A DNA stretch of 59,067 nucleotides, filler included, from Dugesia japonica (taxonomy: Eukaryota), in assembly GCA_001938525.1 (NCBI GenBank). It is 5 parts of 5 records of this genome, joined end to end, with 100 filler letters (N's around TTAATTAATTAA, not from the genome) between each part and the next. Parts side by side here need not be neighbours in the genome. Positions count along the whole stretch, not along the records: positions 12,057 to 24,594 come from MQRL01647812.1; 4 more parts are not named here. The stretch is one strand, 5' to 3'. The notes under the pieces were generated by a model. The model was not told where the DNA came from and did no database searches. It saw nothing but the letters and a program-made list of their open reading frames with translations. This document shows, piece after piece, positions 13,300-55,659 of this stretch. The stretch's first letter is position 1. Each line of letters starts with the position of its first letter. Made by a program: the position numbers and the translations under genes.

Positions 13300-15200
13300 A
13301 TCTAGTATTTCTTGATGCTTCTACTGCAAAGTATCTGAAGATGGGACCGACTGCCTCGAAATGGACTCTTAACAATTTCTTTACGATCATAAAAATCAAA
13401 ATTCTTAAAAATACTCAGTCCCATAATTTTTTATCATAATAATTTATCAGTTAAAAAATTTTTAAATTACTTTTGAGTTGAACTCTTCGCCATTGTCTTT
13501 CTATTTTTTCATTTGTTAGATAATTATGTTTACTCGCAAAACATAATCAGATATCTAATTTCTTTGTGAATCATCCCGTCACTTTTAATTTGAACGTCTT
13601 CTGACAATATATTTACATTTCTTCTAGACAGCAAAATCTCAAAATCCATTTTTCGAAAATTGTTTTCTTTATTGTTTCATCTACTTGTCTTGTTATACCA
13701 GCTAATATCTGATACTTACTATTATGATTTACCATGCATTGTATGTACATTTTTCGTCTTTTTGTTTCTAGTATAGATCCACATACGCTCACAAATAATA
13801 ATAAATTCAAAAATGTTGTCGCTATTATTTTGTTTAAGGGATCTTTTGTCGTTGTTTTTGCAGTTTTAGTATCTTGATTTCCCCAAACTATATACAGAAA
13901 TTGACTCAACAGATTTTCTCCTATATATTTGTCTTTTATAATCGGGTATTTTCCCGACTTCAGCATGACACAATAATCTGTGTATTTCCCAAATTGTCTC
14001 TTGCATCTTTGTCTATTCTTCTTCTAAGTTTCCTTGACGTTCATTGCATCTTTTTCTCTTTTGTTCTTCCTATTATTTTTCTTATCTTAGCCATTTTTGT
14101 TAGTTGTCCAGCACTGAACGCAAGTCGCTCATATAGCTCTAGATATCCTTTTGTATTTTTATGATCAAAGTCTTACATGCATTTCACTGAAATATCCAAA
14201 CTATTTAAATAATTGATATAGGTTTGAAATTGTGATGTGATTACCTTTTTGGTTGTCATCAGAAACTTGATTGCTTTGTGGTCTGTTCTGAATATGAATC
14301 TTCTCTCATATCGATCGTGCTTAAAATGCATTCAGAAATAGTATGCCATCAATGGCTAGTTTTTTGTAATAGAATAGCGTTTGTGCGGCTCGTCATTTAG
14401 TGCGATTCATTTGCTATAACTCTTTTCTTTTTATCTTTATCTCTTCGTGATAGTATTGATCCGATGATATTAAAACTAGCAATTGTTTCTAAAATGAACT
14501 TCTTTTTCATATCCGGAAAAAATAGAACAAGTGGCATAATGAATGCTATCTTAAATCTCCGAAGCGTTTCTTCCGCCCATTCTAATCTTTTATTACTAGG
14601 AAAACTAAATAATTTTTCAAAAGTTATGACTTTATTACTATATTCGCTGATGAAACCTTTGTCTTAATTACAAATTTCAGTAACACTTCAAAGGTGTTAT
14701 TTTGCTTTCTAAAATTTTGTATGACCTCAAGTTTAGAAGGATCAGAAAATGCTTGTTCTTTGATGATTTTTATCATAAGAACTTGATTTTTTCTGTTATG
14801 GTTGATAATTTTCTAGATTAATCTTTTGTCCTGTTTCTCCGACCTTTTTTAACACCATCAATTATTGCATAGTGTTGATCATATTTGCTCGAATAAATCA
14901 AATTGTCATTCAAATACATACTTGTCGCCTTTATTTTACCGATTAAGTTTGTTATAATTTTGTGGAATGCACTTGGTACTGAAGCAATTTGAACAGAATT
15001 GCTTGATTTTTTGTTGAGAAACTCGTTTCTCAAGCTATTCGTCTCTTAGTTCTACATGGTTATGCAAATAACTAGATTTTTTGAACTCAAAAACAAATTT
15101 TTTAACAAATTTTACATCTCGTTTATGCTTGGCATTGGAAATGCTTCTTTTTTTAGGGCGTTTAATCATTTTAAATCTGTTGAGTTTCTAGGATCTTGAT
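13300..15200 (-). mobile_element. Highly decayed Gypsy pol (RT-RNase H-integrase)
   Basis: AFPMPS (~15130), IASVPSAFHK, KKFILETIASFNIIGSILSR, FRTDHKAI, and integrase-like KYQILAGITRQVDETIKKTIFEKWI. Confidence 0.65.
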
Positions 15201-17517
15201 GTTAGAAAATTACGTTTCTCTTTTACTTATTCATTTTCAATTCTAATAGTCAAATTTCGTATCTAGGGGCATACCTAGAAACCTCAACCTTTTATGGTAC
15301 CTCTGTACCATGCCCCTTTACTCCACGGATTCAGCGGAACTTTGTGGTATCGCGTCTTAACTCTGATGTTATAAAATACTTGGACCTTTCTGCTCAGTAT
15401 TCATTCTCAACCACTACTAATGGCAGTAATAAAAGATTGTCCATACATAACCAAAACAAATTAATTAATCTATAAAATGGCTAACATTTAATAATCTATT
15501 TACACAGTCCATACCCCATGCGTTTCAGTCTTCAACTTCACCCGTTTTGCTATCCAAATCCACTGTGCTTTCTTTGACTGTATCTTCTTTATGTAGTTGG
15601 TAGTCTAATTACAATGTTCTTAGAGTATTGAACATTGTAGCTTCTCTATCTGAGTATATTTTGATTACCTCCGCCTTTAATCGGTTGGCTTGCTTGAGGG
15701 CGTGCTCTTTGTTTTTTAGTTGAGAATTTTAACCTTTTGTTGTTGTATTAATTCCTTTCAGTCTCAATATTTTGTTTCACAACTATCTCTTCTCATTTTT
15801 TCATCTCTTTTGTAGGGTCATGACATCTTTTATTGTTATTTATCCTTCCTGCAATTTATTCACTAAAATTAACAAACCTAAATTAATTGAGATTAAGAAA
15901 AAGAATTATTTTTCTTTAAAGTTTATCAATTAGGGCTTGTTGTACCCCGCAAAAGTAAAACCGTACAACTAATAAAATAAAATTTTATTTGACAAGAAAT
16001 TTTCTCTGCGTTGCCTCTGCAACGTATAGTAATATGCTCAATGCTAAAATCGTGACGTACATTTCACAAATTTTTTATCAAAAAAATACAACTACTAAAC
16101 GATGCATTAATTTACTCTAAATTCAAATCAATCGGAATAATAGGATTGCTCAAATCTAATATTTCCCGAAATATTTTTTGCTCCTCTTCCTTCTGCTGTT
16201 CTTCCTCTAGTTCATCCTTTAAGATCTGGGCATTTTGAATTTGTAGTGAATTCGATGATTTCGCTTTGTCTTAAATATTTTATTACTGCTCAGAGGCCTG
16301 ATTTATATAGTTGCGTTGATTTGTGACCACCTGTATAATGCCTTCCTTTATAACTAACTGAAGTCGGGTGGACTCCAGTTTCGCCTTCAACTCTAGTATT
16401 TCCGACTCAGGACGTTCTTTCTCCTTCGCGATCATATTACGGACTTCGGCTTATTCAATGTAATAGTTGCCGAACTCGTTATGCTACAGTTATGCTACTG
16501 CTAACTTTGATAGATTGATTACATAAAATAAATGCAATAGTTGAGAATTTATCTGAATATGTTTGATTTGAAAATATTCAAATCCATATGATCAAATAAA
16601 GTGGTTAAGTAGTAAGATAAATTCAAGTTATTAAACAGTTTGGTACCTAGGTCATGAAAGATGTTACTAATATAATTTAATCTCAGCGTTATTCAATAAA
16701 ATTTGTCAAATGAATAAATTTACAATAATTAATTTAGATAATTAAAAATATTGAATGAATAAAATCAAATAATATAAATGAAAATTGAAATAAATAAGAT
16801 TATGTAAATTTGCCTTAACTGATAGAAATTAAAGGTGGATTTCGATGTATTTCATATAATGAATTATTTGCATAGTTGGATGCTCTTGTAGTTGGAGTAT
16901 TATTGTTTATTTGTAACAGGGTAATTATTTTGATCGTTTTAATGTGATAACAATGATATTGTTGTGTTACCTCTACGTATATATATTTGATAATTGAATG
17001 CATATTAATGTAACTATCATCAAAACGAAACTTTCGTAGAACATAAAGGTACAAATAAACTATTTGATAAATGTTGAATAAAAATGTTTACTTTAATGCA
17101 TAAATGTCTTAATGGTTCATAAAAGTTACGAAATGTATTTTAGGAAAAACATTTTAAATGTAATCAAATAGAAAAAATTGACTAAGTAAATAAGTAACCA
17201 TATAAATTTAAATAAATACAAATAAATTTCAATACTTATAAATGTTTTTAATAATTACTAATAAAATTTTTAAACTTAAATTAATAATTCTTGTATAATA
17301 CTACGTAATGTTAATTACTTCTAAAAAATAAAATTGTAAAGTGATTAAAATTTGTGTTTATTTGTATCAAAAACTGAATTCGAATCTAGTGTAAATAAGT
17401 AAGCTTTTAAATTAGATTATTTTTTCAAATTTCAGTAAATTATGCTTTTTTCAGATTTTCCTTAATTTTGTGGAATAATAATAATTTCTTTTGATTTCAT
17501 AAAATTTTCTACGCAAT

Positions 17518-19018: not shown

Positions 19019-19055
19019 CAATTCGATATTTCGACCTTGTCTTCGTCAGGAATTG
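19019..19055 (-). ncRNA. Minimal type I hammerhead ribozyme, exact inverted copy of 19079-19115
   Basis: Exact reverse complement of the 37-nt motif, separated from it by 23 bp. Confidence 0.85.
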
Positions 19056-19078
19056 ATTTTTTTGAGTTATCTAAAAGT

Positions 19079-19115
19079 CAATTCCTGACGAAGACAAGGT
19101 CGAAATATCGAATTG
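19079..19115 (+). ncRNA. Minimal type I hammerhead ribozyme (Penelope-type), family A
   Basis: CAATTC-CTGACGA-A-GAC(AAG)GTC-GAAA-TATC-GAATTG. Stem I CAATTC/GAATTG is perfect, core CUGANGA and GAAA are intact, stem II is 3 bp, and palindromic ATAT replaces stem III. Predicted cut after AUC (C19109). Confidence 0.85.
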
Positions 19116-24594: not shown

Positions 24595-26851
24595 NNNNNN
24601 NNNNNNNNNNNNNNNNNNNNNNNNNNNNNNNNNNNNNNTTAATTAATTAANNNNNNNNNNNNNNNNNNNNNNNNNNNNNNNNNNNNNNNNNNNNTTATTA
24701 TCGTAATTATTGTTATTGTTATCTTTAAACTAAATATTTGGGCATATCTACTAAATAATTGAAAAAATATGTACAAATTACTTCGCAGCCATTGAAATGG
24801 GCAAAATTACGGAAGATGAAAAACTTTAAACCTTCAACTAGACGATCGTAATTATGAAAAATTAAATCAACTTTCTTAAGTCAAATTGATATTATAAACC
24901 TGGTCATTACAGCAGAATTGAGGCTCAAGAAATTTTTTAAGATAAAATGTAGCAGCAGAATTGATTTTCGAGAAATTATGAACGTTTTATTATGGCAGAA
25001 ATGAGAACCAAATAATTATAAAGGAGATTAATCACACTTGAGTCGATGGGTTATAAATTTAGAGAGAAAGAAATTTGATCTAAGCCGAATCGACCAAAAT
25101 AAAGTATCGAGAAATAGAATCAACCTGAGTAAAGTGTATGAACGGAAAATGATGAGAAGTCATAATGGTCTGGTGAGATGCGGTAANNNNNNNNNNNNNN
25201 NNNNNNNNNNNNNNNNNNNNNNNNNNNNNNNNNNNNNNNNNNNNNNTTACTCTTCTCGCATTTCGCTTTAAGCAGCAATTTTTAAATGAAGTTTTGGATT
25301 ATCATTTAATATAATTTTTGATTGTTAATTATTTCTTGTAATGATCCGTAATTTTACATGAATTTTACACTTTGAATTTTTTTCATGCGTTAATTTTAAA
25401 TGTTTCTATTATTTTATAAATTATTTTGAGTAGTAAACGAACTGTTCTTACTTTTAATCGTAGAACTTTTTTCAGCCAATGATCATGAATAAAATGAAAG
25501 ATAGTATTGTAATCAGAGAATGTATTAAAATTAATAATTTTTTGTGGAGTTATCTCAATGATTACTTATATATCTCCATGTTGCACAGCTCGCAACCTAT
25601 TTAATTAAACACTACGTGATGAACTGGCAATAACTAGAGATAATTGTTTTTTAGTGTGTTTGAAATAATTTCATCGGGGGGACGAGTAAAATAATAGGGA
25701 AGTTCTTGTGAGAGCTCCTTAAAGGTGTGTATGAGGAAGGATGACTGTTTCTAGGGGGCATCATCTCTGGTTCAGACTTTAGGGGTGGTGGAACAAGAAA
25801 TCATTAGGCCAAAGAAACGTAATTTAAAAACAATATTTTTTATCTAACAAATATAGTTTTGATGTTTATAATTAATAATTATTTATGACAGATTGACAGA
25901 TTCTGTCGTGATTATGAACGGATAGCAAATGGTGATATATATTTTATTTACATAAACTAATGGATGTTGAATATGACAGCTTAAAATTTTATGTTTTTGT
26001 TATGTGAGACCAGTTTAATAATTTAGCAATTAGTTTGAAGTCTAAGCTGAGCAAGATTTTAATGTTGTTTATAATATGAGAGTGCAAGGCACGATACCAC
26101 AAAGTCGCACTAAACCAGAGAAAAGAAGGGTATGTCACGGAAGTATCATAAATACTTGAGGGTTTTAGGTATGCCCTGGACAGGAATGAAAGTGAGCAGA
26201 TACTAAATGGCGAAAGTGATAAATGACAGTAAAAAGTATACATATTAAAAACCAAAAGACTAAAACCCCAACATTGGTATTGGAACTAATGAATGCTCAG
26301 TTATGACATCTGAAAGGTAGGCGCTGTGAATGAAATTTTAAAAANNNNNNNNNNNNNNNNNNNNNNNNNNNNNNNNNNNNNNNNNNNNNNNNNNTACACT
26401 TTGAATTTTTTTCATGCGTTAATTTTAAATGTTTCTATTATTTTATAAATTATTTTGAGTAGTAAACGAACTGTTCTTACTTTTAATCGTAGAACTTTTT
26501 TCAGCCAATGATCATGAATAAAATGAAAGATAGTATTGTAATCAGAGAATGTATTAAAATTAATAATTTTTTGTGGAGTTATCTCAATGACATCTGAAAG
26601 GTAGGCGCTGTGAATGAAATTTTAAAAAAGCTGAAAATGTTGCCCACTGTCCTTGTTACTACTATAGGCTCAATTTTTCGATTTCAATATTGTGAGGATT
26701 TGAAGTTAAATATGTTTATAATTTTTTATAATTTGTATTGGTATTTCATTGATATTTTATTGTGGGTTTTACTTAAACATTTTGAAAAGAATCTATAAAT
26801 AATCTTGTATTATTTTTTGTAATTTATTTATATAATAGCTTATTTTAATAA

Positions 26852-29179: not shown

Positions 29180-30508
29180 TTGAGTTTGAAAAACTCATCG
29201 AATCATTAACATCAGAATTCAACTCCATAAATTTATTAAAANNNNNNNNNNNNNNNNNNNNNNNNNNNNNNNNAAACAAATTAAAACTTCATGCTCTAAT
29301 CGGAAATTTTTTTTCAAAAATTTAAAAATTTAAATTTTAAACTTGATTTGAATTAATTTGATAATTTTACAGAAAATAATTATTTTTTAATAACAGATCC
29401 TTTTAAAATTTTCATAAACTTTTAAAACAAAAATAAATGATCATTCGTATTAGCATATAATTTAAAAATTTTACAAAATTTTAAAACAAAAAAAACTGAT
29501 CATTTGTTAAAGGAAATTTCATGAAATTTCAAAACAAAAAAATGATCATTTGTTGTATGTATTAATATGTCTTTTAAAATTTTCTCAAAAACCTTCATAA
29601 AATTTTCAAAACAAAGTCACTTAATATTAAATTATCATTTTACAATCTTTGGAACTTCAAAACAAAATTGACATTTCCAAAAATTTTAATTTATTTTAAT
29701 TTCTTAATTAATTTGTGATTTTGAATTTTTTTTAAAAAAGATTTTTNAAAACACAATTTCCAACTAGAGCACAAAAACTTTTAACTCGCTTCTAAACTAC
29801 TCACATTCCTCCTTTTAATAAATTTTTTGATCTTCTCAACGTTTCTTTCGAAACTTTTTCCGTTTGTATCTTCCAGGATGTAACGTCTGTCATGAAACTT
29901 TCTCTTGATCTTATAAGGTCCTTTATAACGATCTTGGTTCTTGTTTCTTGTTTCAGCTTTCANTAAGATCTCATCACCGATCTCGAATTGTCTTTTGGTT
30001 AATATTTCTTCTTCTTGTTCTTTGTGCACTCTTTGAGTATATGTTTCATAACATTTTTCTCTGCTGATTCTCTTCACAAATACGATTTCAGCGGGGCTTT
30101 TCCCGATAGTTTTCTGTTTTGTAGCGTTCAAGGTAAATTCTATCTGTGTAAATACATCCGCCCGATCTGAGGTTTTCCTTTCTTTAAGTGTTGCATTAAT
30201 CAGATCTCGCCTTGTTCTAAACTGTCTCTTGATTTACCAATTTGTGTTATGATGATATGGACTCAAAAACCTGAGGATAATGTCATGCTCAACTGCAAAA
30301 TCTTTCATTGATTTAGATTTAAATGCTCTTCCACAATCAACTCGAATTTCTCTCGGACACCAGAACTTTAATACTTACTTCTCCAATATTGCTTTCCGTA
30401 TGGTATCTTCATCTTGTCTTGTCATTGCTATCAAGGCTACATACTAAATGCATTAGTCTATTATACCGAGAACATATTTTTTCCGACCTCTTGTCTCCGG
30501 CAGTGGTC
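29180..30508 (-). mobile_element. Gypsy 3' end: integrase, PPT and 3' LTR
   Basis: PLPETRGRKKYVLGIID, IRVDCGRAF, FLSPYHH, GKSPAEIVF, YKGPYKI. PPT AAAAGGAGGAA (29816->29806) directly precedes TGTGAG at 29805. LTR far end is approximate. Confidence 0.85.
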
Positions 30509-33718: not shown

Positions 33719-36044
33719 ATATATATATACTTTGTACTTTTATAATTACAATTATTGTGAGAATAATTGTTGGACTTAACCATTGATCGGATTTGAGATT
33801 TCATNNNNNNNNNNNNNNNNNNNNNNNNNNNNNNNNNNNNNNNNNNNNTTAATTAATTAANNNNNNNNNNNNNNNNNNNNNNNNNNNNNNNNNNNNNNNN
33901 NNNNTATTTAGCTGGGTTCAGTTAATTATCACGTTTAGTTTAACACTTTATACTCTAAGATTTAAAATTATCAAAAACTCAAGTTTGTAACAAGTGGAAA
34001 AATATATTCAATTATCAATTCACCACTTGCTATACATTAATTTAACAAATAGGACAAATAATAAAACTAACGTGCTCTGGATCCTGATCCGGAGCAAGCA
34101 CGAGGTTTGAAGTAATCATTTCCTTGATAGATATTACTGATTAAATGGATCCACCATAATTTTCCATTNNNNNNNNNNNNNNNNNNNNNTTGCATCCTCC
34201 ATTGAGTAACAAGAATATTTACTTTAAATAATCTCCGTTCAATTACCGTATTTCGCTTGAAAAAGAATGTTCGTTAAATGAAAATTACATCGGTATTTAT
34301 ACCGGTTTCTATTCAAACCCCCATTCCTTTCATTGGTTATTTGGAATCGTACGACTTTCTTGACGTTTATATTGGCTTGAACGTCATGTGAGCTCTTTTT
34401 ATTGGTTGATATTTTTGGACTTCGAATCTTCAAACCCCTGTATCTTTTTTCTGAGACTTCTACCGATATTTTAACTTAGATTTTCAAATTCTCCGATTTT
34501 GTCTTGACCAGAATCTTTTTAATTGCTAATTTTCTCACCATGGGAAGTCGTTGTTTTTGCCATTTTTCATGAAATAATTACTTTTCTTTTAAAATTAATT
34601 TATTTTAAATTGTTTGAATTATTTTATTTAAATAAATAAATTATTTATTTTATTTTCTTGGTGCATTTTGTTTAAGTGTTCATTTCTTTGTTCCTTGATT
34701 TGGTTTTAATTTAATTTCACTGTTTTCTTCATTTTATTCATTAAATTAACATTTTGTTCTTCTAGTATTAATTCCATTTTCTTGATTTTGCCCAATGAAA
34801 TAATTGTTATTCATTATCTTTCCTTGTCCCGCTACAACTTCTTTTACTTCTTTTTTTTGGTCTGTTCTTTTCTGGGTGGTTTCTTGTTGTAAATTTTGGG
34901 TTTTGTTGATTATTTCGTTGGTTTTGACTACCAATCTCGGTTTTCCTTTTAATTATTNNNNNNNNNNNNNNNNNNNNNTTCTTCTTAGGTCTGAATGCTT
35001 CGCTTTCTTTTCTGACGACAATTTTTTAACTTCGAGTCTACTTGTCACCATTTTTTATTTTTGGTACCCAGTGTTTTACCCCAACAATATATAGAATTTA
35101 TTCAATTAATTTGTATTTTAAAAAAAACATGTTTTATATTTTAAAAATTTCAAAAACCAATTTTAATATTATATATAAAAATTAAAAAATCTCAGATAAT
35201 TGACTTCACACTGCGGTGGGAAAATTTAAGGATAAAAATAAAGAAAATCGATATAAAGAATAGATATTTTAAAGACCAAAATGCTATAGTTTAGTAATAA
35301 AGCAAGTACGAAAGCAAAGGATGTAGCATCTAAAGATACATACATACAGCATTAGTCTTATTTGGATTGTTACAATAATAATAAAATGATGGCAGTGAAC
35401 CAATTCAGAATAGAGACGAAGAATTATTAGCTGTATAGCTTTAAAGGCTAAAAAGCTCCGTCAACAAATATTATACCATATGGGCATTATTATAATACAA
35501 AATATGATTATAAAAACACGTAATATTATTATCTCTTAAATTAATATGTTACAAATAATACAGATAATCATCCAGCAATTAAGTAAAAAATTTGATTTGT
35601 AATTTTTATTTTTATTATTAAAACTATTTAGTAAAATAAATATCTCAAATATTCTCAGAGCAATTCAACTCAAATGACATTTAAAAACATTTCTGTGAAT
35701 AATAAATATTATTTGTATTTTTATTGTTTTATATCTTAATCTTCTTTGTTAGTAATTGAAAAATTAAATTAATGAACATAGTTTTTTGTCATACAATTTT
35801 GAAAATATGATAGCTTTGTTAACTGTTTCATTACGGTTTGAATGATTTCCATTTTGTCTTGATTAAATTTTAAAGGTCCAACATGGTTTACAGAGTTTCT
35901 ATGATTTTGAATGGTACACCAAAAGTTGTGAAAACCTGTTATAAATCTCCATCATCTTATTTTGAATCCAACGATACATAATTTGATATATTAAATAAAA
36001 TTAAATGGTTTCCATGGTTTTGAATGATCATACAGAAGATTTTG

Positions 36045-36899: not shown

Positions 36900-37900
36900 T
36901 TCAACAAACTAGCACAATTTAAAGCCTTTAAAAAGTTTAAACCAGCCACTGAACAAAAATAGTTCCTTATTCCTGTTCTATATATTGAGATTTAACTAAA
37001 TTTGGATAATTACATTAAACATATAATCCAAAACATAATGGTTTTTTCTGGGAATAAAGTTTCTGTGTTTTCTTTAGATTCGTTTTTATCATTTGTGGAA
37101 CTCCGTTCATTAATATTGTACATTTCAAAATCAACAATTATCCAAGATATCATTTTGTTTTTAAAATTAAATTTTAAATAATTTTCTTTGGGAAATGTAT
37201 TTTGTGCCACATCATAATTTAAACATAATCTTTAATTTTTTCCTGAAGCTTCTTGATAACTAAATCCTATCATACAATTCAAACATGGAAATGTTTTATT
37301 TTATTTTTTTTATTTTTTTAAATGTACTTACATCTGCACATAATGCATGACTTTTTAAATTCAAAATTCTTTTTGTTTTCTTCTTCATGGAAAATTGATT
37401 TCTATAGTGAATTCCATCTTTTCCAACAATTTTCTAATTTAAATTTAAATTGGCAGTTAAAATGCAATTTTTAAAACATTTAAAATTTTAAATCTTTAAT
37501 ACGTTTTTACTGTCATGTTTGACTAAAATGTAAACTAAACCTTCATGCTAACCATAAAATTCTGTACCAGAATCTACCAAGTCTTAATTTTGTAGCGTCT
37601 TTAATTTGATCTTTAAAAAGGAATTCTTTGTTCACTATTTTTGAAATTGTGCGGAAATGTATAAGTAAGCAATGTATAAGTAATTTTGAATGTTCTATCA
37701 AATGGTATAAGTTTTAATTTGAAAAATTACAAATTGACATCTGTAGACCTTTGTTAAATTTTAAATCTTTAATAACTTTTTACCATTAATCCGATTGACA
37801 ATTTCATGTCATCATATTGTTCAATTTTTATCGTCATCTATAGATGCTACATTTGCTACCATAACATATGTTGGGTTTTTAGGATTTTGATATTTCGAAT
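36900..37900 (-). mobile_element. Probable Polinton pPolB N-terminal remnant
   Basis: PKENYLKFNFKNKMISWIIVDFE resembles the LKF.N......IYADFE exonuclease-I region; otherwise highly decayed. Confidence 0.4.
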
Positions 37901-38955
37901 TTAATCTCTAAACTTTTCACAACTGTTCATTTTCGTAAATAAATAAATCTGATCTATCGTCTAGGGGCATACCTAAAAACCCCCAAGAGTTTATGTCACC
38001 TCTGTGACATGGTCCTCTCTTTCCTAAGTCCAGCGCGACTTTGTGGTATCGCGTCTTATTCACTAAATCTATAAACCCCAACAGCAATCTCTCTCACATG
38101 CTCAGTTAAAATTCGACTTATAATAGCACTATGATTTTACTTTACCAGACACAATCAATAAATATAAATTAAATAAATTGAAACGAAGATTGATCAGTTT
38201 ATGTTTCTTTGGTCTGCGGCCTATTGGGTCTTCATCTCACACTCCTGGATTATGAACCAGGGAAGATATAAACCATAAGCCAATATCTTTCCTAATTCCA
38301 ATCGTCCGGAGTTCTTTCAAGAATTTCCTTATCGATCGAGATCATACCCAACTTTAGTCAGCAGTGATACCAGTCACTTTACAACATCTAAATAAATCTT
38401 TCACCACATCTTTATTTATTAATAATATAAGTTAAAATTTATTAAATCATTATTCCAGAAAAAGCAATGTCAAATCAGTATATAATTTTGATNTTTTTTN
38501 AATTCAAATTTTCAATATAAAGAGACAAACAAAATGAACACGCATTATTGATACAATTTCAGGGAGAAACATTCTATTAAATCGGCAATCATGGCCATCG
38601 AGCTCTTGACAGAAATTCGTTAACAACACTTTCTCTATGAGATTATCTAAACATCATTACTTCTCTTGACATCAATTCCATTTTTTTGTTAATAATCTTT
38701 TTGACACAAACAACACAATCACACTTTTATAATTAAGTTTCTCTAAAACACATTCATTTTCCGTTATTCACTTTCCCCGAAGTACCACTTCATTTTCTGT
38801 TACTCATTTTTGTACAAAACGATCTCATCTTTTCGGTCGTTTTTCTTGATAAACAATCTCAGTTGTTCTGTATCTCTTTTGAAACCTAACCTCACTTAAC
38901 CTGATTTTTTCTAAAACAACAACCTCATTGATTCTGCCATTTTTCACGACCATTA

Positions 38956-39108
38956 TTTTCTGGCAATCTTTACGAATAATATTCTCGTAATTTACTGGCA
39001 ATCTTTACGAATAATATTCTCGTAATTTACTGGCAATCTTTACGAATAATATTCTCGTTATTTTCTGGCAATCTTTACGATTAATATTCTCATTATTTTC
39101 TGGCAATC
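38956..39108. repeat. 35-bp tandem minisatellite (>=4 copies, runs into a gap)
   Basis: CTGGCAATCTTTACGAATAATATTCTCGTAATTTA with starts at 38960, 38995, 39030, 39065 and 39100. Confidence 0.9.
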
Positions 39109-41360: not shown

Positions 41361-42519
41361 ATAGAATTGGAACGAAAGTCTTGTCCGATAGAAAATAATA
41401 TTTATTTAACCAATAAAGACAAAATGTAAATTGAGAAATATATGCAAAACATCANNNNNNNNNNNNNNNNNNNNNNNNNNNNNNNNNNNNNNNNNNNNNN
41501 NNNNNNNNNNNNNNNNNNNNNNNNNNNNNNNNNNNNNNNNNNNNNNNNNNNNNNNNNNNNNNNNNNNNNNNNNNNNNNNNNNNNNNNNNNNNNNNAGAAG
41601 AAGATTAACTCCGTGCTTGGCACCGGTACTGTGTCTGCGAGAAACTGCCAGCGAACAATTGCAAAATTCATTGTTGGTAATTTCGTCGTTGATGATGAAG
41701 AGAGAAGTGGGCGACTATTGGTTGAAGATGATGTAGAAGATTGAATCAAAGAGGTTCTGACGTACGATAAATATGCTACATCTCGTAATATGGCAGAAGA
41801 GCTGTCGTTGTCTCAAACAACAATACTCCGACACTTGCACAAAATGGGAAAGCAATACTGGCAAACAGATGGTTGCCACATTTTTTGTCAGATGAAAATA
41901 AAGCCAACGTGGAAAGAATTTATGGCCAATTGTTGGCTATGCACCAACGGAACGACTTTCTCAACGGTGGATGAGGCTTGGGTATATTGGGACAATGCCA
42001 ATCGATTTTATCACGACCGATCTTGGTATGGTGCCGTTGATCAACCTACAACATCAATTCGTCGATGTTTGACAGCACAAAAGCACCTTGCAACTATTTT
42101 TTGGGACGTGAAAGTAATTCTCTTGTGTGATGTACTTCCTCAAGGAAAAAATATAAACGCAGAAATTTACTGCACTCAGTTGCTGAGATCGGTTTTACAG
42201 TATTGGCACATCCACCATACTCCCCAGACCTTTCCCCATCCGACTATTACGTGTTTTCTCCTATGAAAAACTCAATTCGTGGGAAAACTTATCTCTCTGC
42301 TGAAGAAGTTAACGATGATTTGGAAAACGGATTAGCTTCAAAACCTGCAGAATTCTATGCTAACGGCATAAAACAACTTCCAGAACGCTGGTAAAAGTGT
42401 GCGGACCTTAAAGGTGACTATTTTCAACATTTTAGATCCACTGACGAGTGATGTTTTGTTTATATTTCTCAATTTACATGTTGTCTTTATTGGTTAAATA
42501 AATATTATTTTCTATCGGA
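41361..42519 (+). mobile_element. mariner (DD34D) DNA transposon, frameshifted
   Basis: DDEERSGR, TVDEAWVY, HPPYSPDLSPSDY, GIKQLPERW. Near-perfect inverted repeats 41384-41441 / 42461-42519; right tip lies in a gap. Confidence 0.92.
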
Positions 42520-47024: not shown

Positions 47025-49420
47025 GTGTGAATTTTCGAAAATAGATATTTTTATCGGAATTCGGTTTTTCTATGAATTCTTTAAACCTAAAAAATAATAA
47101 TTCTAACATGCGATCACGTTATTGGCAAATTTTATAAAACCTCCAGAAACGTTTGAAATCGGAAAGGAGGTTAACCAGTTTATCAAGGATTTCGATCGAT
47201 TCTTTGACCTCGCTATGATTGACGAAAATTATAAAGAAATTTATATAAGAGCTAAATATTTCTCGACTATTGATTTAGGTAACGCGTATTATCAAGTGGA
47301 GCTTGAAAAAGATTCAAGATTGAAAACAGCCTTCTCCACGAAAAACAAACTATATTGTTTCAACAGGATGCCATTTGGTATTGCAGCAGCACCTGGANCA
47401 TTCCAGAAACTTATGAATAAAGTTCTTGGAGAATTGAATTGGATAGATATAGTTGTCTACCTAGGTGACACTCATATTTTTGAAAACATTAGAATAACAT
47501 TATCAATCCATAGAAAAAGTATTCTAGAAGATACACAATCAGGTTTAAAAATTAGTCCATCTAAATGTCATTTTAAGAAAGATTATATCACATTTTGCGG
47601 CCATATAATAAGTAAATGGGATTGAAACTGATCCAGAGAAAATAAAAACTATAAAAGAATTTAAAAGACCAAAATGCTTTAAGAAATTACTCAGTTTTTT
47701 GGGTTTAGCAATCTATTACAGAAAATCTTTTATGAATATACAAAATACGCAAAATCTTTGGAAAGTTTATGTAGAAGTAATCAAAAGAAATTAATCTAGA
47801 CTGAAGAATCTGATAAAAGCTTTCAAAAATTAAAATATATATTAAGTTCTACTCCAGTGTTGGCCTATCCAAATTTCGAGTAAACCTTCATACTAGATAC
47901 AGATTCTAGCTTTAAAAGAATTGGAGCTGTATTATCTTAGTTTACAAGATGGTAAAGAAAGAGTTATCGCATACGGATCACATACAATGAGCAAGCATGA
48001 ATTGGGTTACTGCATAACCAAAAAATAGTTATTAGCTATATATTTCTTTACAAATCAATTAAAACATTACCTGTATGGAAAACGATTTATCTTACGGACA
48101 GATCATAAACTATTACATTTATGATTAAAACAAAGAAAACCACTTACACCCCAATTCCAAACGTGGATGAATTATTTAAGTAGCTTAGATATTGATATAC
48201 AATACCGAAGAGGAGAACTACATAGAAATGCAGATACAATGTCAGGAAGTGAATGTCCGTCATGTGTGCAATGCCAAATGATACACCCAGACCCAAAATT
48301 TGGTAACTTAAAGACAAAGATATTAGCTATGATAACTGATGAGCAAGTAAATATTTGATTCAATGGAAATGATTCAATAGAAACTAGTCATATTATAAAT
48401 GATAAAATCAAGACAATCGGTAAGACAAAATTTAAAATTGATAATGGTGTTGTAAAAACTAGTCTTAAGAAAATATGGACCCATGAGGATAAAAGAGAAG
48501 AATTAATTTTAAACTATCACAAGAAAGTATGTCATGGAGGACATAAAAAAGTTCAAAAATATATTAAAAATAATTTTGATATGAAAGATATAACAAATAT
48601 AATAAGAAATATTGTATAAACTTGTGAAAATTGTCAGAAAACAAAAGTTTTTACAGGTAGAACTAAAGAAAATATAAAATCGCCAGATGAAGTAAAACTA
48701 TTTGAATCAATTTTCATTGATTTTTGTGGACCACTCCAAAAAAATAGTTATAATGAAAAAAAATTCTTGGTAATTAGCAAATATGTTTCATTACATGCAG
48801 TCAGCAATCAGGACGAAAAAAACTACATCATTAATAGTAAGAAATCAATGGATCTTAAAATATGGAGCAACTAGAATAATTAACACAGACATAGGCAAAA
48901 CGTTTAAAAGTAAAATGATAAAAGAATTATTTGATATGCATAAAAGTAAAATGAATTTTTCTAGCCCATATCACCATGCTGCCAATGGTCAGATTGAAAG
49001 ACAATTCAGAACGATTCGAGATGCAATTCAAATATGCCTGAAAGATAAAATGCATAGAAATTGGGTTGAGTTATTACCAGAAGTCAAATTCATGGTAAAT
49101 TCAACAATTCAAAAAAATATTAACAAAACACCAGCTGAAATAGTATATGGAAAAAATATTTTTCTAGAATGGATAGAGACAAATAGTAACATCAAAGAAA
49201 ACAGCAAAACACAAAGAAAATTTAACACTGGAGATTTAGTTTTANNNNNNNNNNNNNNNNGCAATAAAGATGATGATATATAGGATGGCCCAGGAACAAT
49301 AACAAAACAAGTTCATGAAAGAAGTTTTGAGATTAAAATGCCTAATGAAAGATCTTTGATACGAAATATTGAATGGCTAAAACCTTAAAAAAGGGAGATG
49401 TGAGATTTAGATACTTCAAG
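47025..49420 (+). mobile_element. Internally deleted Gypsy element (gag start fused to RT, RNase H, integrase, PPT, start of 3' LTR)
   Basis: KYFSTIDLGNAYYQV, RMPFGIAAAPG.FQ, VYLGD, ILDTDSS, TDHK, HKKVCH..CENC, IDFCGPL, SPYHHAANGQIER. PPT AAAAAAGGGAGA at 49387-49398, then TGTGAG at 49399. LTR-end-like TCTAACA ends at 47108. Confidence 0.9.
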
Positions 49421-50650: not shown

Positions 50651-52630
50651 CAATAATAAAATAGACAAAGGAGTAGTAAATATAACCCAAAAAATCAAAA
50701 ACACAATTTAAAGATCCCGATAAAAATAAATAGTTTATTAAAAAAATACAAAAGTATTGCTGAAGTCACAGAAATTACTTGAAACGTTTCCTGCATAACA
50801 GAGCATGCTATCATAACTAATGGTAATCCAGTGCATGCAAAATTTTATTCAACTCGACCCTTACAAAACAGAAATAACGAAAACAATGTTTTCAAACTTG
50901 GAAAAAAGCAATATCGTCAAACGATTGAAATCAAACTGGTCATCCGCACTAATGATCAAACAGAAAGCAAACGGAGAATGGAGAGCCTGTGGTGATTACA
51001 GAATGGTTAACAAAATAATGGCACCGGACAATTACCCGTTACAAATTATCCCAGATATTATAAAAAAAATAAATAGGGGTCACGGTCTTTTCAAAAATTG
51101 ATTTGCAAAACGCATATCATCACATCCTAATCAGAAAAGAAGACAGCTATCGTCACACCAATAGGAATGTTCTAGTACATCATGAGTCAATTAAACCCTT
51201 TCAATATTTGCTGGAAGGAAGAAACTTGAAAATATATACGGACCACAAACCTTTCGTAAACGCAATGACTATGAAAACGCCATTCCAAAGACAGATACGT
51301 CAACTGAATTTTATTTCACAATTCAATTGCAAAATAAAGTACCTAGCCGGAGCATCAAACGGAGCAGCTGATACACTATCAAGAGTCAAAAGTGAGGTCA
51401 ATTTGATCAAATTTATTGACTGCTTTGACATTGAAGAAATCAGACAAAAACAAATAGAAACAATAAATGAATTACCGACAAAACACTCACTAAAAATCAA
51501 AAATAAATGATGTGTGGTACGATATGCAAAACGAAGGAAACGTAAGAATCCTTCTACCAAAATAATATAGAAAAACATATATAACTCGGATTCACAATTA
51601 CCATCATGTTGGAAACAAAGCAACATACGGGATGATTCATAGCAAGTAAATCTGGCCAAATAGGAGACAAGAAGTTAGGAAATTTGATAAAACTTGCCCA
51701 AACTGCCAGAAAAACAAAATAACAAAAATCTTAAAACTGATAAAATCAACTTCCCAGTAGCGAGGCATTTAATATTATACATGCGGATATAAAGGGACCA
51801 TTACCGCCAAACGACGTATACAGGTATTTACTTACAATTATCGACAGGAAAACAAACTTGTTTAAGTAATCTCATTGAAAGAAATATCTGCAACAAACAT
51901 TTGCAAAAATATAGAATAAATTAGTTTGATCGCTACGGACAACCAAAAACACCAAAATAACCTACTAAGGTAGACAATTTGAGTCTAAAACTATTCAAAC
52001 AAATGTGCGCTAGATACACCACAAAAAGTAAAAGTACTGCATACAACCCACAGTGCAACGGGAAGATAGAAAGATTTCACAGAACACTAAAACAAAGTCT
52101 GTGAACAATGACAAATGACAGAACATGAATCAAAAAATTGCCACAAACATTGATCGGATTACGAAATACCCCAAGCTCAACCAACAATCAAAGCCCATGC
52201 CAGATGGTAAGGGGAAAACAAACAATAATACCAAATAATAAAAGAAAAAAAACTACAGACATAGAAAAGACAGTAAACAACGACAACCAAACAAAACCAA
52301 AGGAACCAAAGAGTATCCTAAAGAAAAGTGAACCACAACCCCAAAAAAGGTCCCTACTACAAACTATGCATTAGTAAGTAACCTTACACAACAGACTTGG
52401 AATCAAAATATTCAGGCCCATACAAACTCCTAAAAATCGACAAAAATGTTGCAATCCTCATCATAAACGACAAGGAGACGAAAGTTAATTTAAGAAGAAT
52501 GAAACCATATCATAAACCCAAACAAACAAAATATGTGACATTCAACGCACAAAATCAAACAAAGTTGTTTATAAAAAACACACCGATAATACAATCAAAT
52601 GTTAACGTAATAAATCCAACAAAATAAAAT
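50650..52630 (+). mobile_element. Second Gypsy lineage (CsRn1-like) pol remnant with internal deletion
   Basis: WSSAL...GEWRACGDYRMVN, DLQNAYHHI, KPFQYLLEGRNLKIYTDHKP, HADIKGPLPP..YRYLLTIIDR, AYNPQCNGKIERFHRTLK, YSGPYKLL. Confidence 0.85.
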
Positions 52631-54738
52631 TCTTCACAAAAAACACACAGTTAATATAAACAAATAACACAAAATAACAGATAAAAACATAGTATAATGT
52701 AAATATTTTGAAAACAATATTGCGTTGTAATTATTATTATGTAAATTTGAATGCGTTTAGTTCCTTTTATTATTGTTGTATTAAAGGGGGAAGTTTTATG
52801 TAATGTTATTGTTTTTATTTTTATATTTTTCTTTATAATAGATACTTTGATGTTCAAATTCAAGATACTTTTATTTTTTCAAAATTTGATGATTCATCTT
52901 TAGAGACCATAATGAGACTAAATGAGTTATTCATGAGAAAATCTCATAATAAGTACTTGTTTTTAATTTATTTGATCAATAATAAAGTATGATGATTTTA
53001 TCCATATTAATAATGATATTTGAAAGTAATTTAATTATTTTATGGTTCATCGGTAATAGCAGTTCTTTTACAGTTCATTAATGGTTCTTCGATTCCTATT
53101 TTTCACTTACCTTTGCTTAATAACTTTTTATCTATAAGGTTTGGTGATTTTTAACAAAGTTTTTCTTACTCAAAATAAAATCCTCTATTGAATAGTTACT
53201 TTGATGTTTAAATCTGAACTAATAATCCCAAAATTCATAATTTCCTCCCAGACTCCCAAAATGAAGTATATGTTTTGTCAATATAACATTTTATTTAAAA
53301 GGTTTGATGATTATAGGTGGGATATTATAGAGAGCACAGCTAAATATCTTCGTTAGGAAGCATTTTTACCGAGACAATATTTGAACTTTTCACAGACACT
53401 AATACTAAAGTCGAAACCATACAAGTGATGTACGAAGAGAAAATAGAGCACGAAAATTCAAAATTTGAGATTTTTCAGGACAAAACCATATTTATTTATT
53501 CCCGGATAAACTTTGGTGATTTTAAGGTTATATATTTGGAATCAGCGTAAATTTCTCTATCTAATAGACTTAGTTATTTAATGTAAAGATGAGAAATAAT
53601 TTTTTCGAAAATTTTTTTTGTGAAAAATAATTTCCATCTAATTTTGCATCGATTGATGTAAAAATCTCGACAAAAATTGTTGTAAACATTTTTTAAATTT
53701 CAAATGCTTTTCCATATTCTCATAAAAATTTGATTTAAAAATTTTTTAAATGTGAGAATTCAAACAAAAATGATCTAATTTCACCAATCTAAACTAACTT
53801 TTCTCGAGAAAATGATTGACCAAATCACCCAAAACTTAACCGAATTTGACATTCCATAGGAAATAATTGACCAAGTCTTCTAAAAATAACCCAAATTGAC
53901 CTCTTCGAAGAAAAATTTGACCCAATCACCTTAAAAGTCATACAAATTTTTCATTCCTGAGAAAATATTCGATCAATTTCGCCGAAAACCATTAAAAAAT
54001 TGACCACATTCAGTCCAATCACCTAAAAATTACCCAAACCGATCAATCCCGGGGAAACAGTTGATCTAATTCACCTGGATCAACCGAAAATCTTCCTCAC
54101 CAAATAAATTCCTATCTAAATGAAAATGAAAAATTCTGTCGCTTAAAAACCCTCAAAGAATTTCCCAACTAAATACACAGTAAAAATATTGCCGCTTAAA
54201 AAGCCTATAAAAATTCTACGGCTTAAAAAGCCTGAAATTTGAAAATAATTCGGCAAGTTTTTAACAAATATGAGCAAAACTTATGTAATCGCACATAAAT
54301 TTTGATTGCCGCATAAAAACACATAAAAAATACTGCCTCACTTACGTAATAATCCGATTACGTCAACGGCGGGGGGCTACTGAATGTGTGCAGAAACTGA
54401 CAGCCACTATCCACCTACTATAATGATAGAACCTACTATTTATTTCCCAACACAAATGTGAGATGTTGTAATTTATGGTAGAAAATTTGAAAAGTTTATT
54501 AGAATATTCATAAATTTAAGAAAATCCAACCACATAATTTTCATCAAACTCGATTGGTTATAAAAACTCCAATGTTATTTTGAAATTTTAATATAACAAA
54601 TTTTAATGGATAATTTAATATTATATTTATCTATTCCAATGTTACTTATAAAAAAAGGATTATTTTGTTTTTTTAAAAAAATAATTTACTTTGTAATTTT
54701 CAGGTTACTTTACTGCTCATTCATTCTAGTTTTAAATT

Positions 54739-55659
54739 ATGAATAATACTACAATTTGTTCTGGTATAATTGCTGAACAGAGAGGCGTGCAGCCCATTTA
54801 TCATTATTGTTTTTATTTTTTTATTTCACTCTGTGGAGTATTAACGAATTTGTTCCTTCTCATTAATTATAAATACAATTCAAAAGTTATTCTCGGTAAA
54901 AGAGCAACATTTGTTTTGACCATGAATCTATTAATATTTTCTGATTTTGCAAATTCTATTTATCTAAATGTCGGATTAGGTGTATCAATATTTTCAACNG
55001 AAATTTCCAACCTATCACAAGAAATGGTTTATTCTCTAAGAAATTTTGCAATAATTATTCAATCANTCATATTTACATTGATTTCGATCGATCGATTATT
55101 AGCAATTGTGCGACCAATTGAAATTAAATGGAAACCTCTTTTAATAAAACAATTTTTATCAATTATGACACCATTAATATTAGTTTATGAAATATTAATG
55201 AAATACTTGATTAACAATACTTCGCTATTATGTTCATATCGTGTTTTATTAAACATTATTTTTACAAGGTTTCATTTGTCTTTAATCCTTATTTGTGTGC
55301 TGATTAATACTGTTTGTTATTTTAGTTTATTCTTAGTGTTTTATTTTCATAGTTATAAAGGTAAGCATCAATCTGTTTCGAATAAAAATGTAATAAAAGT
55401 TGCTAGAATTACTGTTTTAACAACAGTCATTTATATATTGTGCTTGATTCCTCCATTTGTCAATTCCATGAGACCTGGTTCATTGCCAGTTTTTATTTCG
55501 TTTATTTTGTATTGGCATGTGGTTATCAATCCAATATTGTTCATTATTGATAATTCTTATTTACGAAAAATTATTTGTCGTAGATCCAATATTGTAGAAC
55601 AATCCACATCAATAAATACAAAGATTAATAAACCAATTGTAAAGATTTTTCTAAAATAA
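54739..55659 (+). CDS. Divergent rhodopsin-family (class A) 7TM GPCR, 306 aa, single coding exon
   Basis: Longest ORF in the window; about seven hydrophobic segments; N-terminal NNT sequon; TM1 GVLTN, TM2 L..SD, TM3 SIDRLLAIVRP (DRY-like), TM6 CLIP, TM7 INPILF. Acceptor-like TTTTCAG ends at 54703, upstream of the ATG. Confidence 0.85.
   Translation: MNNTTICSGIIAEQRGVQPIYHYCFYFFISLCGVLTNLFLLINYKYNSKVILGKRATFVLTMNLLIFSDFANSIYLNVGLGVSIFSXEISNLSQEMVYSLRNFAIIIQSXIFTLISIDRLLAIVRPIEIKWKPLLIKQFLSIMTPLILVYEILMKYLINNTSLLCSYRVLLNIIFTRFHLSLILICVLINTVCYFSLFLVFYFHSYKGKHQSVSNKNVIKVARITVLTTVIYILCLIPPFVNSMRPGSLPVFISFILYWHVVINPILFIIDNSYLRKIICRRSNIVEQSTSINTKINKPIVKIFLK

Follow-up and report, generated by a model that had tools for sequence, protein, structure and literature searches.

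A patch of about 100 nt with three proposed hairpins, present three times in a stretch of planarian DNA and left unassigned by the initial annotation, raises the question of whether it is an RNA in its own right or part of a larger element, and of what it does there. The stretch (hereafter the window) comprises 59,067 nucleotides, filler included, from Dugesia japonica (GCA_001938525.1) and consists of five genomic parts joined end to end. The analyses described below point to a control signal carried by an element of a known kind, not to a free-standing RNA.

The Three Copies Belong to a Large Repeat Family

As described in the initial annotation, the window holds three copies of the patch in three separate stretches, and their coordinates, strands and both shared blocks were all borne out. 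The accompanying statement that the flanks show no similarity fails on both sides: a sharp end lying 85-95 nt outside the patch is common to all three copies (15178, 37869 and 26273), and further motifs are found on the other side of the patch, with similarity continuing for hundreds of bases beyond block 2. When searched together as exact strings, the two blocks yield 294 matches genome-wide (157 + 137; 854 Mb, 648,594 contigs) and the reversed-pattern control yields none, which demonstrates that the three copies are not a product of chance and are members of a large repeat family; a BLAST search of the genome, proposed at the outset, returned 2,736 candidates for the patch. Both blocks had been called invariant; they are not, their modal-base frequency being 0.90-0.93 in 25 copies chosen without reference to them (these came via ORF, end, leader or PBS searches, with a BLAST match to the patch still required).

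The features of each copy are collected in Table 1. In copy 1, the inner pair of the long-range stem P1 competes with hairpin H2. A PBS after the LTR 3' end is absent in all three window copies, and neither their far LTR ends nor their TSDs were found within the window; these copies are thus decayed LTR pieces, in which the patch would be inert.

Table 1. Features of the three window copies and tRNA-Pro complements of two other LTR families. Positions are those of the window except where a locus is named; helices and tRNA boxes are predicted.
Feature	Position	Strand	Remark
Copy 1, LTR 3' (U5-side) end	15178..15192	-	...CTCAACA on element strand
Copy 1, conserved core	15261..15359	-	
Copy 1, D-arm box	15261..15269	-	8 exact pairs, tRNA-Pro 11-18; overlaps P1 3' strand
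Copy 1, long-range stem P1 around H2	15265..15317	-	arms 15265-15272 and 15310-15317
Copy 1, central hairpin H2	15294..15311	-	covarying
Copy 1, linker box matching tRNA-Pro T arm	15326..15333	-	one wobble
Copy 1, hairpin H1	15335..15354	-	damaged stem under a conserved 10-nt loop
Copy 1, isolated ACTGAGC island	15392..15398	-	exact complement of tRNA-Pro 2-8
Copy 1, remnant of LTR-borne small ORF B	15549..15866	-	broken; 48% identity to L023 copy
Copy 1, remnant of LTR-borne small ORF A	16304..16471	-	41% identity to L060 copy
Copy 2, LTR 3' end	37869..37883	-	...CCTAAAAACCCAACA
Copy 2, core	37959..38058	-	P1 and T box damaged
Copy 2, D-arm box	37959-37967	-	9 exact pairs
Copy 2, H2	37993-38010	-	
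Copy 2, H1	38034-38053	-	
Copy 2, ACTGAGC island	38100..38106	-	
Copy 2, further LTR sequence common to other copies	38107..39000	-	ORFs A and B not detected here
Copy 3, upstream LTR segment	25701..25814	+	75% identical to solo LTR L098
Copy 3, core	26086..26181	+	most decayed; H2 damaged
Copy 3, D box	26173-26181	+	damaged
Copy 3, LTR 3' end	26259..26273	+	...CCCCAACA
Other family, tRNA-Pro complement	L266:1-273		tRNA 11-35
Other family, tRNA-Pro complement	L243:208-422		tRNA 16-46

Several other features of the window were noted. Positions 19026-19109 form a near-perfect palindrome with arms of ~35 bp, probably a MITE, which gives weak microRNA-model matches below threshold and resembles a motif flanking L045 and L094. 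At ~34830-35086 (-), a second LTR family may have its 5' end (TGTTGGGGTAAAAC...), which carries a box like one in the present LTR. By eye, 54736-55659 (+) holds a 307-aa frame resembling a multi-pass membrane receptor, while 29781-30233, 47107-47625, 48774-49283, 51073-51510 and 41745-42266 resemble fragments of other gypsy integrase/RT and of a mariner-type transposase.

Limits, Primer Site and Orientation of the Parent LTR

The LTR in which the patch lies has the ends TGTTGGG...CCCAACA, an inverted repeat of 7 bp, and complete units at three loci measure 3,393, 3,789 and 1,931 bp, each of the three being bounded by a 4-bp TSD. Across the family the patch is situated 80-110 nt inside the LTR 3' end. 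The suggestion that its left edge, TGTCTAGGGG, could represent an LTR-like terminus is correct with regard to the proximity of an LTR end and incorrect with regard to the edge itself, which is not TGTCTAGGGG and is found 85-95 nt further out.

Clustering of 87 patch-side flanks revealed a flank common to L051 and L060 that contains TGGGGGCTCAGCCGGGA, which has 535 matches genome-wide with one position left open, compared with 0 in the control. This sequence, the PBS (TGGGGGCTCAGCCGRGA), complements CCA together with the 3' terminus of the host tRNA-Pro(TGG), a tRNA read from two loci (its 5' 60 nt in L220, its 3' end in L218). Among 94 PBS loci, which represent several families, the PBS is located 6-8 nt past the CA end of the LTR in 83 of the 92 that could be scored, and at exactly 7 nt in 70. 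A gap of 0-3 nt is usual at this point, and a PBS sought 0-3 nt from either LTR end gave 23 and 22 matches, none with a PBS-like flank; the true spacer is longer. Family 1 accounts for 15 of the 54 PBS loci with enough upstream sequence, and core and PBS occur together on 18 distinct family-1 contigs (23 loci minus three duplicates and two sister-family loci), mostly with the PBS 7 nt after the LTR end. The position of the PBS establishes the orientation of the element, which reads on the strand opposite to that quoted in the initial annotation, and places the patch just before the LTR 3' end.

An internal tRNA-iMet PBS at TGGTATCGCG was considered and rejected, as no matching tRNA was found and the motif is antisense to the element; with the TSD and PBS established, readings as Helentron, DIRS or Penelope were likewise abandoned. 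Two pattern searches for a polypurine tract before the 3' LTR returned only few, chance-like flanks. Further observations concern the LTR as a whole. L097 and L349 each carry two patch-bearing LTR ends on one contig, 4.9 kb and 2.6 kb apart, which suggests nested or deleted copies. Insertion sites are biased, with T, A and T found at positions 5, 6 and 7 outside the LTR end in 56, 57 and 53 of 87 flanks, a set that includes loci selected on their flanks. Towards its 5' end the LTR also has a conserved, imperfect palindrome ~300 nt long, whose arms are anchored on GACTGGACCAG and CTGGTCCAG (L090, L091, L097, L098 and L102).

Internal Genes and Class of Element

The sequence following the PBS is common to copies and is without a long frame for ~4-5 kb. 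Beyond it, the order Gag-protease-RT-RNase H was pieced together from overlapping contigs, leading from L357 to L347 and then to L389 and L390. Specifically, L357 is a single contig with patch, PBS and leader, its leader is 74-83% identical to that of L347 into the start of a frame, and the L347 frame matches Retrotrans_gag (E 6e-11). Contigs whose Gag is 82-85% identical then run on through zf-CCHC, several kb without Pfam match, Monjiviricetes_fusion, aspartyl protease and RT/RNase H. In L389 and L390, PF24664 fragments of the Env-like fusion protein are flanked by Gag and protease/RT, and in L392-L394 they follow Gag; their frames are broken. The Pfam HMM scan took in 34 of 54 fragments of decayed copies, and a match to integrase (rve) was obtained only in L391, whose protease and RT fell outside the scanned fragments. 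L388, with an LTR and Gag on one contig and neither LTR end nor PBS, was excluded as a link. In this assembly of 648,594 contigs, no complete element with an LTR on each side of one internal region was seen. The parent, which had been termed an unclassified element, can be classified by its LTR, its PBS and its Gag-Env-protease-RT layout: it is an abundant, tRNA-Pro-primed Ty3/gypsy LTR retrotransposon that is Burro-like as judged from its predicted domain layout.

Walking from the patch also led to small ORFs on the minus strand of the window. ORF A has 1,944 candidates genome-wide and no homologue among proteins of 70-226 aa, and neither ORF A nor ORF B gave a Pfam match at the cut-off. More generally, the LTR bears one or two small frames of ~110-140 aa, coiled-coil-like by eye and situated behind splice-acceptor-like sites, which are open in many copies (window 15549-16471 (-); L060, L014, L023, L065).

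Fold of the Patch and Its Conservation

Conservation within the LTR is concentrated on the patch. Among the 25 copies selected without use of the blocks, the modal base has a frequency of 0.89 in the core, against 0.54 in the spacer and 0.57 upstream. Single-copy folding gives nothing unusual for copies 1 and 3 (z -1.7 to +0.1) and stands out only for copy 2 on the element strand (z -3.2). With regard to individual helices, the exchange in the central hairpin between ATGGTAC-CTCT-GTACCAT (15294-15311) and ATGTCAC-CTCT-GTGACAT (37993-38010) is present as originally described. The left hairpin proposed alongside it, CTAGG-N6-CCTAG, does not hold up as a feature of the family, being complete in 4 of 61 aligned copies and present in a 4-bp form in 38 of 61; among 20 sister-family rows, two have the exact 4-bp form. 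Of the window copies, copy 2 alone has an intact CGCGA/TCGCG hairpin, and copy 1 has a mismatch in it; the long-range pairing noted in copy 1 is present as P1. Both this right-hand hairpin and P1 have weaker support than H2.

A covariation analysis, likewise proposed in the initial annotation, found double changes in four of the six H2 pairs across 61 family-1 copies, amounting to 28 double-change cells as compared with 8.6 +/- 2.5 after shuffling (0/500 shuffles), whereas the count of pairs with a double change is no higher than in shuffles (309/500). These cells count copies, not events; H2 nonetheless occurs in several distinct multi-copy stem sequences. In the same 61 copies, double changes affect two of the seven P1 pairs and none in H1. 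Two sister families, first met among the PBS loci, keep the layout with other letters, and over the three families (40 sequences) double changes are found in 6/6 pairs of H2 and 1/5 of H1, the latter representing a single event that the search pattern demanded in 22 of 24 sister rows. The H1 pattern used for the sister families has 557 exact matches genome-wide. In family 2, P1 re-forms in a shifted register, with 109 of 127 cells Watson-Crick, versus 47 of 132 in the family-1 register. RNAalifold, given the 61 copies, recovers only part of H2 plus a weak alternative to H1, at -3 kcal/mol. As a test of strand, G-U was compared with A-C in family 1 and showed no excess (44 vs 54), so that neither strand is favoured as the one that folds.

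Raw RNA reads pile on the patch, to ~75-fold in one run as compared with ~5 or less elsewhere on L067. Since 97-100% of these reads continue into unlike sequence, they derive from many diverged copies; transcript start, transcript end and a clear strand were sought in the raw reads over the patch and not found.

Taken together, the place of the patch by the LTR 3' end, its conservation far above that of its neighbours and the covariation of H2 agree with the earlier proposal that a structure under selection sits close to the end of an LTR-type element. With high confidence, we regard the patch as a selected cis-element of its LTR, and its modelled structure is one of two hairpins and a long-range stem.

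Complementarity to the Host tRNA-Pro

Because the PBS names the primer, the patch was examined for complementarity to the rest of tRNA-Pro, and three candidate boxes emerged. Firstly, on the element strand block 1 terminates in CCCCTAGAC, which is exactly complementary to tRNA-Pro 10-18 (the D box; 13 bp with wobbles). Secondly, the linker between H1 and P1, TGAACCCG, is the exact complement of tRNA-Pro 49-56 (the T box). Additionally, an ACTGAGC island located 41-50 nt upstream of H1 complements tRNA-Pro 2-8 exactly; its core is the commonest 6-mer of its zone (115 copies), and the full motif is exact in 56 of 115 copies and in 17 of the 52 that were not block-selected.

In six of eight family-1 copies, only 0-11 of 300 shuffled tRNAs reach the sum of the top three complements, a result to be read in light of the boxes having been found post hoc and of the family-1 copies being one lineage and not independent trials. 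The same test is not significant for copy 3, L229, sister families 2 and 3 and clusters 0 and 6, is borderline for cluster 2, and was also passed by one of nine downstream controls (1/300). In family 1, the sums are 16-24 for tRNA-Pro and 12-22 for six other host tRNAs. The D-box duplex has a predicted energy of -20.6 to -22.9 kcal/mol, equalled by 0/60 shuffles in 3/3 PBS-linked copies, and the D box alone is marginal by complementarity (12-25/300 shuffles, or 39-119/1,000; p about 0.04-0.12). Each box also has a possible intramolecular partner. ACTGAGC could instead pair with the PBS. The T box fits a loop shared by numerous tRNAs and in some copies finds intramolecular partners. Where the D box calls for T, family 2 carries C, for which P1 pairing alone accounts.

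Two other LTR families with a tRNA-Pro PBS, not alignable to family 1, carry colinear tRNA-Pro complements of 25-26 nt, which cover the D and anticodon arms and lie 160-200 nt before the PBS. No shuffle in 1,000 reaches this level, nor does any of 13 downstream controls (57-827/1,000). In L266 and L243 a common GAACCC box follows the complement, and then an apparently different long stem. A further locus, L185:100-230, shows an LTR end and then, in reverse, the 3' half of tRNA-Pro joined to a 5' half that we take to be Ala-like, with altered anticodon letters; this junction resembles the product of an RT that read into the primer and then switched template.

A Proposed Role in Priming

A priming or packaging signal was among the roles first named for the patch, and its place before a tRNA-Pro PBS makes this the likely class. 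On balance, we lean toward the patch being a split, extended primer-binding platform for tRNA-Pro, akin to those of Ty1 and Ty3. In the proposed mechanism, the patch, 90-190 nt inside the LTR 3' end, is assumed to lie in the 5' leader (R/U5) of the genomic RNA, a placement made by assumption since the RNA reads gave no start site. Annealing of the 3' 17-18 nt of tRNA-Pro to the PBS would free the 5' strand of the acceptor stem and the T stem of the tRNA; the former (tRNA 2-8) could then pair with ACUGAGC and the latter (tRNA 49-56) with the H1-P1 linker UGAACCCG. Opening of P1 would allow CCCCUAGAC to pair with the D arm (10-18, 13 bp with wobbles), and this switch between P1 and the D box would gate minus-strand initiation, as the Ty1 boxes and the Ty3 3' PBS do. 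A broader and more tentative idea is that giant Env-bearing planarian retroelements may grip nearly the whole of tRNA-Pro upstream of the PBS in family-specific ways, namely through three scattered boxes on a switchable H1/H2/P1 fold in one family and through a 25-26 nt colinear complement in others.

Alternative Explanations

The same place and fold could serve a different purpose, such as packaging, dimerisation, strand transfer or binding of a protein at a TAR-like site, with the tRNA matches arising by chance. This is the main rival, though in our view less likely than not: families 2 and 3, whose tRNA boxes are weak, retain H1, H2 and P1, the H1 loop sequence is conserved as a protein or kissing site would be, and P1 accounts for the CCCC run. 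It leaves without explanation, however, the ACTGAGC island, the AGAC after P1 and the long complements to the tRNA that two other families carry in a comparable position, and the H1 loop is not self-complementary. An improbable view would have the patch act at the level of DNA or transcription, as a promoter-downstream or polyadenylation signal or as a fold of minus-strand strong-stop DNA. The wobble test, which does not favour the RNA strand, and the sharp onset of conservation at the H1 edge, possible at a transcript start, are compatible with it, but H2 changes its sequence freely with pairs kept, unlike a double-stranded factor site, and no TATA or AATAAA was seen conserved at a fixed distance.

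Origin from a tRNA, either as the relic of a captured tRNA-Pro copy or as an antisense Pol III A/B-box promoter, is very unlikely: although the L185 junction indicates that RT read-through into the primer apparently occurs, and although the antisense strand presents the D and T boxes in the order of an A box followed by a B box, the boxes run 2-8, 49-56, 10-18 and so are not colinear with the tRNA, and of 61 copies two have a strict B box and three an A box (by the usual consensus). Scarcely credible is the reading as a free-standing ncRNA or a self-cleaving ribozyme with an HDV-like double pseudoknot. RNA reads do cover the patch, and in most family-1 copies (87.7% of cells) the H1 loop complements UUGUGGU inside P1; nevertheless, this pseudoknot was rejected, as it shows no double changes in family 1 or over the three families, where the pairing falls to 72.5% of cells, and is broken in all three window copies. 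Inspection against the consensus finds the HDV core features absent, the near-universal continuation of patch reads into unlike sequence speaks for many copies, and Rfam returned nothing at the patch at E <= 1 (window plus 8 LTR-end loci), leaving both the new ncRNA that had been entertained and a ribozyme without support. Finally, there is a negligible probability that the patch is a subterminal motif of a cut-and-paste transposon, for instance Ginger. TG...CA ends with an AT-rich 4-bp TSD also fit Ginger2 (PMC2836005), and most LTR ends have unique flanks; against this, the inverted repeat measures 7 bp, those of Ginger DNA transposons being put at about 50-180 bp or, more widely, about 40-270 bp, and a tRNA PBS and then the Gag leader follow the LTR end, the link between PBS and Gag having already refuted this reading.

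Implications and Comparison with Known Systems

Burro-type elements are among the largest retrotransposons and have been proposed as proviruses. For such Burro-like elements the present work supplies LTR limits, a primer and a short RNA domain open to test. Element and signal each belong to a known class, while this particular structure and the possible multipartite grip on a tRNA appear undescribed; the literature searched contains no description of Burro LTR structure, PBS or replication signals, and the supplements of the primary Burro paper may cover the PBS. If the tRNA boxes are real, the extended primer pairing of yeast Ty elements and retroviruses operates here too, in more than one architecture, and would constitute a multipartite priming system in an animal Ty3/gypsy lineage; the 7-nt gap between LTR and PBS would further imply unusual end processing. 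If they are not, the patch is still an ordinary but well-supported structured LTR signal.

Upstream boxes have a precedent in the HIV-1 primer activation signal, a single 8-nt box upstream of the PBS that complements the 5' strand of the T stem of tRNA-Lys3; the candidate boxes described here are likewise upstream, but HIV-1 is a retrovirus with one box and a different primer. Env between Gag and protease is the reported hallmark of Burro of planarians, and the present element resembles Burro / GYPSM1, giant Ty3/gypsy elements of dugesiid planarians, in Retrotrans_gag, CCHC knuckles and ~7 kb of further frame, in a mononegavirus-like fusion protein between Gag and protease followed by RT/RNase H, and in its many decayed copies (PMC6431247). 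The Burro / GYPSM1 accessory domains MATH, BIR, BCL2, ankyrin and dUTPase gave no match at E <= 1e-4 (34 of 54 decayed fragments, Pfam HMMs only). Cer1 of C. elegans is also a Ty3/gypsy element with a TGGGGG-type tRNA-Pro(TGG) PBS, which in Cer1 directly adjoins the LTR (PMC3315495), whereas a 6-8 nt spacer is the rule here.

With respect to priming itself, the predicted pairing resembles that of Ty1, in which the short boxes 0, 1 and 2.1 outside the PBS complement the primer and one box competes with intramolecular pairing (PMC3592414), just as the D box would compete with P1; the Ty1 boxes are downstream of the PBS, whereas those considered here are upstream. Box 2.1 of Ty1 paired in vitro and was not confirmed in particles (PMC3592414), which recommends caution with regard to the D box. 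The bipartite PBS of Ty3, in which the T and D arms of the primer are paired outside the 5' PBS (PMC5371799), is similar in that separate RNA segments serve the acceptor stem, T arm and D arm, a pairing that is predicted in the present case. In Ty3, however, the primer is tRNA-iMet and the second part of the PBS lies in U3, about 4,800 nt away (PMC5371799), whereas the planarian element has a full 17-nt PBS, with the boxes about 85-230 nt upstream.
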